DNA from: Escherichia coli
Lineage (GTDB): Bacteria; Pseudomonadota; Gammaproteobacteria; Enterobacterales; Enterobacteriaceae
Length of the DNA: 64,000 bases
Reading direction: 5' to 3' (one strand)
Assembly: GCF_024502345.1 (NCBI RefSeq)
Contig: NZ_JALDNN010000001.1
This document shows, piece after piece, positions 36,838-40,545 of the stretch (positions are counted from its first letter, which is position 1; each line of letters begins with the position of its first letter). The notes beneath the pieces are model-generated. The model was not told the origin of the DNA. It was given only the letters and a program-made list of their open reading frames with translations, and searched no databases. Position numbers and translations under genes: made by a program.

Positions 36838-37353
36838 TTAGAAGCGGTAACCAACACCGGCAATCCAGGTGCCTACGTCAACGCTACGAATACGGCTCTG
36901 CTCGTAAGAGAAGTCCAGAGCAACGTTTTCCATCGGGTTGAACTGCAGACCAGCACCGTAGGAGAAACCGTAGTCGCTGGTGTCGTGTTTGTAGGTCGGG
37001 TATTCAGTGGTCTGGAATTTACCATAACCCACACCCACTACACCGTAGATGCTTGCCCAGTCGTTAATGCGGTAAGCCGGACCAGCAGTGATGCCGTAGT
37101 ACTGGTTTTTGTTGTAGTCACCAGAGCTTGCAGTACGGCTTTTCTCGGTGTAAGTGAAAGAACCGATCACACCCAGCGGGCTGTTGTCTTCTTCATAGCG
37201 GTATTTCAGGTTGAAACCGCCCATTTTGTTCATTTGGCCCTGAGCGTCGCTCTGTGCGTAACCGCCAGTTACGGTAGAAGTCGCAGCTACGGAAGTACCT
37301 GCGGTGAAAGCCAGAACTGCGGCCAGTGCTGAAAGACATGCAATTTTTTTCAT
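36838..37353 (-). CDS. ompX: outer membrane protein OmpX
   Basis: 171 aa from ATG at 37353; signal peptide and 8-strand beta-barrel ending in aromatic residue. Confidence 0.93.
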   Translation of the reverse strand: MKKIACLSALAAVLAFTAGTSVAATSTVTGGYAQSDAQGQMNKMGGFNLKYRYEEDNSPLGVIGSFTYTEKSRTASSGDYNKNQYYGITAGPAYRINDWASIYGVVGVGYGKFQTTEYPTYKHDTSDYGFSYGAGLQFNPMENVALDFSYEQSRIRSVDVGTWIAGVGYRF

Positions 37354-37705
37354 AACCACCTCAAATGTGATTCAAATAAGTCCTAAGTTTTAAATATATC
37401 AAAAATTAATGGGAAACTCTTCGCGATTTGTGATGTCTAACGGGCCATTTCATGTAACAGAACGTTTCCATACACCGCTATCCATCTAAATTTAAATCAC
37501 TTTTTCAGAGAACTGCGTAAGTATTACGCATGTTTTCCCTGTCATTCATCCAGATTATTCCTAATCACCAGACTAATGATTCCATCAATCCTGGCGCATT
37601 TTAGTCAAAACGGGGGAAAATTTTTTCAACAAATGCTCAACCAGCATTGGGTATATCCAGTACACTCCACGCTTTACTTAAGTCTAGATATTTGTGGGAG
37701 AAAGG

Positions 37706-38593
37706 ATGCCTGGTTCATTACGTAAAATGCCGGTCTGGTTACCAATAGTCATATTGCTCGTTGCCATGGCGTCTATTCAGGGTGGAGCCTCGTTAGCTAA
37801 GTCACTTTTTCCTCTGGTGGGCGCACCGGGTGTCACTGCGCTGCGTCTGGCATTAGGAACGCTGATCCTCATCGCGTTCTTTAAGCCATGGCGACTGCGC
37901 TTTGCCAAAGAGCAACGGTTACCGCTGTTGTTTTACGGCGTTTCGCTGGGTGGGATGAATTATCTTTTTTATCTTTCTATTCAGACAGTACCGCTGGGTA
38001 TTGCGGTGGCGCTGGAGTTCACCGGACCACTGGCGGTGGCGCTGTTCTCTTCTCGTCGCCCGGTAGATTTCGTCTGGGTTGTGCTGGCGGTTCTTGGTCT
38101 GTGGTTCCTGCTACCGCTGGGGCAAGACGTTTCCCATGTCGATTTAACCGGCTGTGCGCTGGCACTGGGGGCCGGGGCTTGTTGGGCTATTTACATTTTA
38201 AGTGGGCAACGCGCAGGAGCGGAACATGGCCCTGCGACGGTGGCAATTGGTTCGTTGATTGCAGCGTTAATTTTCGTGCCAATTGGAGCGCTTCAGGCTG
38301 GTGAAGCACTCTGGCACTGGTCGGTTATTCCATTGGGTCTGGCTGTCGCTATTCTCTCGACCGCTCTGCCTTATTCGCTGGAAATGATTGCCCTCACCCG
38401 TTTGCCAACACGGACATTTGGTACGCTGATGAGCATGGAACCGGCGCTGGCTGCCGTTTCCGGGATGATTTTCCTCGGAGAAACACTGACACCCATACAG
38501 CTGCTGGCGCTCGGCGCTATCATCGCCGCTTCAATGGGGTCTACGCTGACAGTACGCAAAGAGAGCAAAATAAAAGAATTAGACATTAATTAA
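37706..38593 (+). CDS. rhtA: threonine/homoserine exporter RhtA (DMT/EamA family)
   Basis: 295 aa from ATG 37706 (track starts at upstream GTG). Confidence 0.9.
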   Translation: MPGSLRKMPVWLPIVILLVAMASIQGGASLAKSLFPLVGAPGVTALRLALGTLILIAFFKPWRLRFAKEQRLPLLFYGVSLGGMNYLFYLSIQTVPLGIAVALEFTGPLAVALFSSRRPVDFVWVVLAVLGLWFLLPLGQDVSHVDLTGCALALGAGACWAIYILSGQRAGAEHGPATVAIGSLIAALIFVPIGALQAGEALWHWSVIPLGLAVAILSTALPYSLEMIALTRLPTRTFGTLMSMEPALAAVSGMIFLGETLTPIQLLALGAIIAASMGSTLTVRKESKIKELDIN

Positions 38594-38602
38594 ATTTACA
38601 TT

Positions 38603-38630
38603 TCTGCATGGTTATGCATAACCATGCAGA
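38603..38630. terminator. 28-bp perfect palindrome downstream of rhtA (probable terminator)
   Basis: tctgcatggttatgcataaccatgcaga is its own reverse complement. Confidence 0.5.
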
Positions 38631-38747
38631 ATTTCTCGCTACTTTTCCTCTACACCGTCTTTATATATCGAATTATGCAAAAGCATATTTATTCCGAAAA
38701 TTCCTGGCGAGCAGATAAATAAGAATTGTTCTTATCAATATATCTAA

Positions 38748-39395
<648 letters not shown>

Positions 39396-39434
39396 ATCCA
39401 TCGCTGATGGTGCAGAACTTTAGTACCCGATAAA

Positions 39435-39467
39435 AGCGGCTTCCTGACAGGAGGCCGTTTTGTTTTG
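39435..39467 (+). terminator. rho-independent terminator of dps
   Basis: cggcttcct...aggaggccg hairpin then ttttgtttt. Confidence 0.65.
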
Positions 39468-39610
39468 CAGCCCACCGCAACGCACTTATTTAGTGCATCC
39501 ATCTGCTATCTCCAGCTGATTAAGTAAATTTTTTGTATCCACATCATCACACAATCGTTACATAAAGATTGTTTTTTCATCAGGTTTTACGCTAAATAAT
39601 CACTGTGTTG

Positions 39611-39656
39611 AGTGCACAATTTTAGCGCACCAGATTGGTGCCCCAGAATGGTGCAT
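39611..39656. promoter_or_regulatory. NtrC (NRI) binding-site cluster upstream of glnH
   Basis: overlapping near-palindromes tgcac...gcgcaccagattggtgc...cagaatggtgca resembling TGCACC-N5-GGTGCA. Confidence 0.55.
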
Positions 39657-39728
39657 CTTCAGGGTATTGCCCTATAAATCGTGCATCACGTTTTTGCCGC
39701 ATCTCGAAAAATCAAGGAGTTGCAAAAC

Positions 39729-39744
39729 TGGCGCGATTTTTTCA
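39729..39744 (+). promoter_or_regulatory. sigma-54-type promoter (glnHp2-like), -24/-12 elements
   Basis: TGGCGCGATTTTTTCA matches TGGCAC-N5-TTGCA with GG conserved and a weak -12 (TC); 55 nt upstream of glnH ATG. Confidence 0.5.
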
Positions 39745-39783
39745 TATATGTGAATGTCACGCAGGGGATCGTCCCGTGGATAG

Positions 39784-40545
<762 letters not shown>

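Follow-up and report, generated by a model that had tools for sequence, protein, structure and literature searches.

A 30-bp perfect palindrome between rhtA and dps of Escherichia coli as the probable DNA counterpart of a stem-loop at the 3' end of the rhtA mRNA

What does a long and perfect palindrome do in the intergenic region between rhtA and dps of Escherichia coli? The palindrome lies within a 64,000-nucleotide stretch of DNA, here called the window, in which the surrounding gene order is ompX (minus strand) followed by rhtA, dps, and glnH (all plus strand). The upstream gene, rhtA, encodes a threonine/homoserine exporter of 295 amino acids and occupies 37706 to 38593 of the plus strand, with its TAA stop codon at 38591 to 38593; the assignment follows the list of open reading frames, the RefSeq annotation of b0813, the identical locus in K-12, and more than 5400 E. 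coli genomes. The downstream neighbour, dps, extends from 38892 to 39395 of the plus strand (open reading frame list and RefSeq annotation), and its ATG at 38892 is 261 bp downstream of the palindrome, which in its hairpin form would set dps apart from rhtA transcription. In 5421 of 5426 complete E. coli genomes this part of the window has a match of 95 to 100% identity, annotated there as rhtA followed by dps, and the arrangement is widespread: Dps is encoded downstream of rhtA in 79 of 80 loci from Enterobacteriaceae and relatives, with a median rhtA-dps gap of 302 nt. An earlier note on this DNA had proposed that the palindrome is the rhtA terminator, and also that it could be the site of a dimeric regulator and insulate or regulate dps. 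We think it likely that the palindrome reflects, at the DNA level, a stem-loop at the 3' end of the rhtA mRNA. The support for the RNA hairpin is structure, covariation, and strand bias, all computed here, together with a 3' end position taken from published data.

The 28-mer TCTGCATGGTTATGCATAACCATGCAGA at positions 38603 to 38630 is exactly self-complementary, as had been noted, although this slightly understates its extent: one further base pairs on each side, giving a perfect palindrome of 30 bp at 38602 to 38631, with 15-nt arms and no spacer (NC_000913.3 849172-849201 in K-12, by coordinate transfer from the window). The distances given previously are also right, with the 28-mer separated from the rhtA stop by 9 nt (8 nt for the 30-mer) and dps beginning about 260 bp further on. 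The perfect palindromes that come next in length in the 64-kb window reach 14 bp, and first-order Markov simulation of the window, repeated 200 times, gave longest palindromes with a mean of 16 bp and never above 24 bp; an analytic estimate places the chance of such a palindrome at about 6e-5 per window. Its length is thus far beyond chance. We found no second copy in the window, even with three mismatches allowed, and the palindrome is present at one locus per genome in 5420 of the 5426 complete E. coli genomes (the two places per genome that the search returns are the two strands of one site), so that looking for it elsewhere in the genome, as the earlier note advised, leads back to the single locus. 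A scan of positions 38590 to 38650 against Rfam gave no matches, even at E ≤ 10.

Palindromes located after genes bring to mind the REP/BIME elements, which the rhtA palindrome resembles in being extragenic, in following a gene, and in being able to stabilise the upstream mRNA; it differs from them in being single-copy in every genome, unrelated to the REP consensus, and without an Rfam match. Identity as a repeated element of this kind is ruled out by the one locus per genome in 5420 genomes, and by the lack of any other copy in the window or in the 80 loci.

When the region is read as RNA on the rhtA sense strand, the arms form a 13-bp stem with five G-C pairs, closed by a 4-nt loop (UGCA), and the fold is the same as RNA on either strand. 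The predicted energy is -18.7 kcal/mol (z = -6.0 to -6.4), and none of 200 shuffled sequences folds as well. Stem size, loop size, and energy all fall within the normal range for intrinsic terminators. The sequence 3' of the stem on the sense strand, UUUCUCGCUACUUUUCCUCU, is less typical of a terminator; of the first 8 nt past the stem (UUUCUCGC) four are T, compared with the five or more U's in 8 nt that we took as the approximate threshold for a U-tract, and a consensus terminator scan does not call the rhtA hairpin.

We compared the rhtA loci of 80 species belonging or related to the Enterobacteriaceae, and in about 72 of them a hairpin with arms of 10 to 16 nt starts 5 to 12 nt past the rhtA stop codon. 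The outer arms, TTCTGCATG and CATGCAGAA, are identical in Escherichia, Citrobacter, Salmonella, Enterobacter, and Lelliottia, and both arms are altered together in Kosakonia (TTCAGCATGAG), Buttiauxella (TTTACCGTGG), Atlantibacter (TTCCGCATC), Franconibacter (TTTCCGC), and Pantoea (TTCAGCTG). In a genus-level alignment of 28 sequences, 91% of the pair cells contain standard pairs, compared with 32 to 46% when the partner is slid by one to three columns; 12 of the 14 stem pairs have changed on both sides with pairing kept, and none of 500 shuffles reaches the observed pairing and covariation measures. The same helix is predicted independently by RNAalifold, with compensatory changes at 11 of 13 pairs, and a covariance model built from the 28 sequences gives a single match in the window and, over the window and the 80 loci, recovers the rhtA hairpin site only. 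A cmsearch alignment (A2), which mixes both strands of the palindrome, was left out of the pair counting.

A palindrome that is selected as duplex DNA and one that is selected as the template of an RNA hairpin can be distinguished by the mismatches that they tolerate. An A·C mismatch on the sense strand is a G·U pair on the other strand, and a palindrome acting at the DNA level should therefore show no bias between the two. In a search that scored all mismatch types alike, internal arm mismatches were G·U on the rhtA sense strand at 29 loci (14 distinct contexts) and A·C at four loci (four contexts), a bias with a binomial p of 0.03 on distinct contexts, which is of moderate significance given shared ancestry. 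The direction of the bias argues for selection on the sense RNA rather than on duplex DNA.

A published data set bears directly on where rhtA transcripts end. Supplementary Data 3 of the TRS paper (Nat Commun 2023, PMC10687069; LB RNAtag-seq) lists a minus-strand RNA 3' terminus in MG1655 with its dominant position at 849165 and a peak at 849163-849170, the latter corresponding to window positions 38633 to 38640; after coordinate transfer the dominant end is at 38638, 7 nt past the last paired base. The entry is labelled 'rhtA, Primary', the fold given upstream of it is exactly the rhtA hairpin at -18.7 kcal/mol, and another table of the same paper gives the rhtA 3' UTR as 46 nt. Support for this terminus is uneven over the three libraries (adjusted p = 0, 0.19, and 0.003), and the position comes from this one data set; a search of supplements to Adams 2021 and TERMITe 2025 found no entry for rhtA. 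Mapping of rhtA 3' ends had been suggested previously as a check on the terminator proposal, and the terminus in Supplementary Data 3 supports that proposal, being located within the weak U-tract and tail UUUCUCGCU at 38632 to 38640 of the plus strand, at the distance from the stem base (about 7 to 9 nt) at which intrinsic terminators release the transcript.

We propose the following course of events. Once RNA polymerase has passed the rhtA stop codon, the nascent RNA would fold into a hairpin of 13 to 15 bp that starts 8 nt past the stop, and mature rhtA transcripts would end about 7 nt beyond it. The hairpin would set the transcript end and shield it against 3'-to-5' exonucleases, and it would part rhtA transcription from the dps promoter region. 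Because the U run is short and interrupted and is followed by C-rich, G-poor RNA, we infer that termination is non-canonical, and release could occur by weak intrinsic termination at the UUUCU tail, by Rho acting further downstream with exonuclease trimming back to the hairpin, or by both. The proposal that the palindrome is the rhtA terminator thus stands for a 3'-end hairpin, on the strength of its position, covariation, G·U bias, the 3' end in Supplementary Data 3, and a replacement in Mangrovibacter described below, and fails for a textbook intrinsic terminator, given the weak U-tract and the lack of a call in the scan. Insulation of dps would hold only trivially, as it would for the gene following any terminator.

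Between weak intrinsic termination and Rho-dependent termination with trimming we see roughly even odds. The rhtA hairpin is like intrinsic terminators in lying just past the stop codon on the sense strand, in its normal stem, loop, and energy, and in having the reported 3' end 7 nt on; three U's directly follow the stem in K-12. Mangrovibacter adds to this side, since two species (L066, 2427-2455; L069, 2416-2447) are without the conserved hairpin and instead have canonical hairpin-plus-U-tract terminators 28 to 39 nt past the rhtA stop, a swap at the same position that indicates functional equivalence. In other respects the hairpin departs from intrinsic terminators: its U-tract is short and interrupted (the tail past the stem is UUUCUCG in this strain and AAUAUYC past the G-C core in most other genera), and at the stem base U's predominate on the 5' side and A's on the 3' side, with flanks in most genera of the form 5'-UAUU...AAUA-3', the reverse of the canonical A-tract/U-tract arrangement.

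These departures agree with the description of Rho-dependent 3' ends by Dar & Sorek 2018 (NAR, PMC6061677), in which a protective stem-loop has reduced U past the stem, no A-tract upstream, and C in excess of G downstream. The rhtA end has a stable stem-loop just before the steady-state 3' end reported in Supplementary Data 3, low U after it, and no A-tract before it (the UAUU flank), and it shows the same rut-like downstream enrichment of C over G. In the 100 nt past the hairpin, the 80 orthologous loci average 21.9% C and 11.8% G, with C exceeding G in 73 of the 80, and the skew is weaker further downstream (19.9% C and 15.5% G); the corresponding C-rich, G-poor stretch in the window, at 38632 to 38731 of the plus strand, is by its composition in the 80 loci a putative Rho-utilisation region, and it is also the distal part of the dps upstream region. 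The three U's immediately past the stem in E. coli K-12 set it apart from the Rho-dependent ends. Orthologues of the rhtA hairpin have a median of four T's in the 10 nt past the outermost G-C pair, compared with a median of five, and in many cases five to eight, for the hairpins after dps at the same loci, a comparison that separates the two classes weakly, partly because the simple hairpin finder sometimes misses the true dps terminator. A stable stem also halts exonucleases several nucleotides to its 3' side, and the 7-nt distance of the reported end therefore does not separate intrinsic from Rho-dependent termination. A literature search found no report on Rho dependence of the rhtA 3' end or on read-through into dps.

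Could the palindrome instead work as duplex DNA, as an operator from which a dimeric transcription factor regulates dps (or rhtA), about 220 to 260 bp upstream of the dps promoter? A perfect 30-bp palindrome formally has the shape of a dimer site, and the identity of the outer half-sites in five genera would agree with that, but the spacing of the half-sites does not. Among 32 loci, TCTGCAYG and CRTGCAGA are separated by 9, 10, 11, and 12 nt in 1, 5, 22, and 4 loci, respectively, a range that a dimeric DNA-binding protein would not tolerate, and in distant genera it is the complementarity that is kept (at the 12 of 14 pairs above), not the half-site sequence. The strand asymmetry of the mismatches toward G·U also stands against an operator, as does the single copy per genome with no second site in the window; moreover, what we take to be the known MntR box of dps is elsewhere, near 38822 to 38845 and far from the palindrome. 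A literature search linked no specific regulator to the site, and the binding that has been reported there is an in vitro DNase I footprint of Dps, a largely non-specific DNA binder. We regard an operator as very improbable, and the dimeric-regulator site proposed for dps in the earlier note is not supported, given the variable spacing, the conservation of complementarity rather than sequence, and the restriction of the perfect centre to one genus. This centre, GGTTATGCATAACC, is Escherichia-specific, the Citrobacter form GGTT(T)GCATAACC differing by an inserted base or two, and the 12-nt spacing of E. coli, which is the only one that gives a perfect palindrome through the centre, is a minority state; because of this the exact perfection is probably incidental. 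That incidental centre is the one feature in keeping with a chance or selectively neutral palindrome, a reading that otherwise has no positive support. Length far beyond expectation, a structure kept with covariation across genera, and near-invariance over 5420 E. coli genomes leave it next to no probability, and the conservation data effectively refute it.

A role in DNA structure deserves more weight. The palindrome is the same sequence as the '30 bp inverted repeat' of the distal dps regulatory region (PMC5553809, PMC4433220). Antipov et al. 2017 (PMC5553809) place the repeat in the middle of a Dps footprint, about 216 to 250 bp before the start of dps transcription, and speculate that it affects promoter topology; accordingly the inverted repeat, perhaps extruded as a cruciform, might be a favoured contact for Dps that shapes dps promoter topology and autoregulation. 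Reporter activity of the dps promoter is about 1.5-fold lower in a dps-null strain (PMC5553809), Dps has affinity for branched DNA (Melekhov et al. 2015, PMC4433220), and we find that the palindrome arms fold as single-stranded DNA at -13 kcal/mol. However, Antipov et al. credit the reporter effect mainly to Fis competition at a proximal site, Dps binding was weaker in the distal half of the region than in the promoter-proximal half (PMC4433220), and the footprint appears only when the protein, which binds most DNA, is in molar excess. Neither the G·U strand bias nor an RNA 3' end just past the stem is predicted by a role in DNA only, Mangrovibacter has an ordinary terminator in place of the repeat, and in one natural isolate the hairpin and dps are separated by an 11-kb transposon. 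We consider this reading unlikely, although Dps binding could be a secondary property alongside the RNA role. The two papers treat the repeat as a DNA structural target of Dps and do not link it to the rhtA 3' end, whereas the comparative evidence here points to RNA.

One feature of the alignment fits a structural hairpin less well. The closing U-A pairs (columns 13-42 and 14-41; window positions 38602-38603 with 38630-38631) are invariant in 27 to 28 of the 28 sequences, whereas 11 or 12 inner pairs covary, which a pure structure model does not account for; AT-rich intergenic composition or overlap with a tail signal may be responsible. The invariant closing pairs (UU...AA), the lack of a U-tract, and the constant position 5 to 12 nt from the stop would also suit a sequence-specific 3' element that is read by an RNA-binding protein or RNase, or by the terminating ribosome, and that tunes read-through from rhtA into dps, or else an element with two uses, the DNA form being a Dps target in autoregulation, as in the proposal of Antipov et al. 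We think either form quite unlikely.

Variation within E. coli is consistent with a 3'-terminal stem-loop of the rhtA mRNA in which the stem, and not the exact U run, is constrained. The inner 28 nt have an internal mismatch in 13 of 5420 genomes. A 34-nt query spanning the junction of stem and tail shows one or two differences in 1222 genomes, and the neighbouring 34-nt tail differs in 453. The polymorphism at the junction trades closing pairs for U's: the window and K-12 have GCAGAAUUUCUC (AAUUUCU; window positions 38631-38632), ST131 strain EC958 has GCAGAUUUUCUC (AUUUUCU; L082, 91-93), with one closing pair fewer and one U more, and L001 (2424-2426) and one Norwegian isolate have GCAGAAAUUCU (AAAUUCU), with one pair more and one U fewer. 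The inner stem is thus near-invariant, and the junction is polymorphic. The transposon mentioned above is found in a pig isolate (L083, NZ_LR881940.1, 1096-12200); it is an element of about 11 kb and of the TnAs1 type, inserted between the hairpin and the dps promoter at the equivalent of window position 38666 or thereabouts, about 35 nt past the hairpin, and it carries tet(A)/tetR, a DMT transporter, and a chemotaxis-protein gene, with rhtA, the hairpin, and dps all intact.

Both the repeat and the rhtA 3' end are already in the literature, and the element that they describe is an ordinary one. Recognising the palindrome as the 3' stem-loop of rhtA assigns a 3' end to the rhtA transcription unit and accounts for a striking sequence previously discussed as a Dps target. 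Interpretations of protein binding or of 'structural DNA' in the distal dps region should weigh selection on the repeat as an rhtA RNA hairpin. As a clean, well-covarying, U-tract-poor 3' stem-loop it is also a possible test case for weak intrinsic termination as opposed to Rho with trimming. Beyond correct annotation it matters little.

Several minor observations were made at the same locus. In the Enterobacter/Lelliottia group (L036, L065, L032, and L051, at about 2388 to 2440) an extra outer clamp, GGCC...GGCC or similar, surrounds the hairpin, and the fold energy drops to about -26 to -32 kcal/mol. A sigma-70 consensus scan of the 2.5 kb from 37300 to 39800 returned no promoter-like sites, where shuffles would lead one to expect 4.4; the promoters of rhtA and dps do sit within this interval, and such a consensus scan is therefore weak evidence either way. 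At the other end of dps, Rfam matches below threshold fall at 39386 to 39468 (ctRNA_p42d, at 26.9 bits compared with a gathering score of 50, STnc70, and isrD), all of them on the hairpin of the canonical dps terminator, GGCUUCCUGACAGGAGGCC, with GUUUUGUUUUG after it, and they most likely reflect generic terminator resemblance; the TRS data (PMC10687069) place a dps RNA 3' end at MG1655 position 848334. Finally, the sequence TTATGCAAAAGCAT at 38673 to 38686 is 86% complementary to 38608-38621 within the large palindrome and is a small palindrome itself (TATGC-AAAA-GCATA), sharing TTATGCA with the centre of the large one; it may have arisen by chance, or may be a small site within the distal part of the region upstream of dps.
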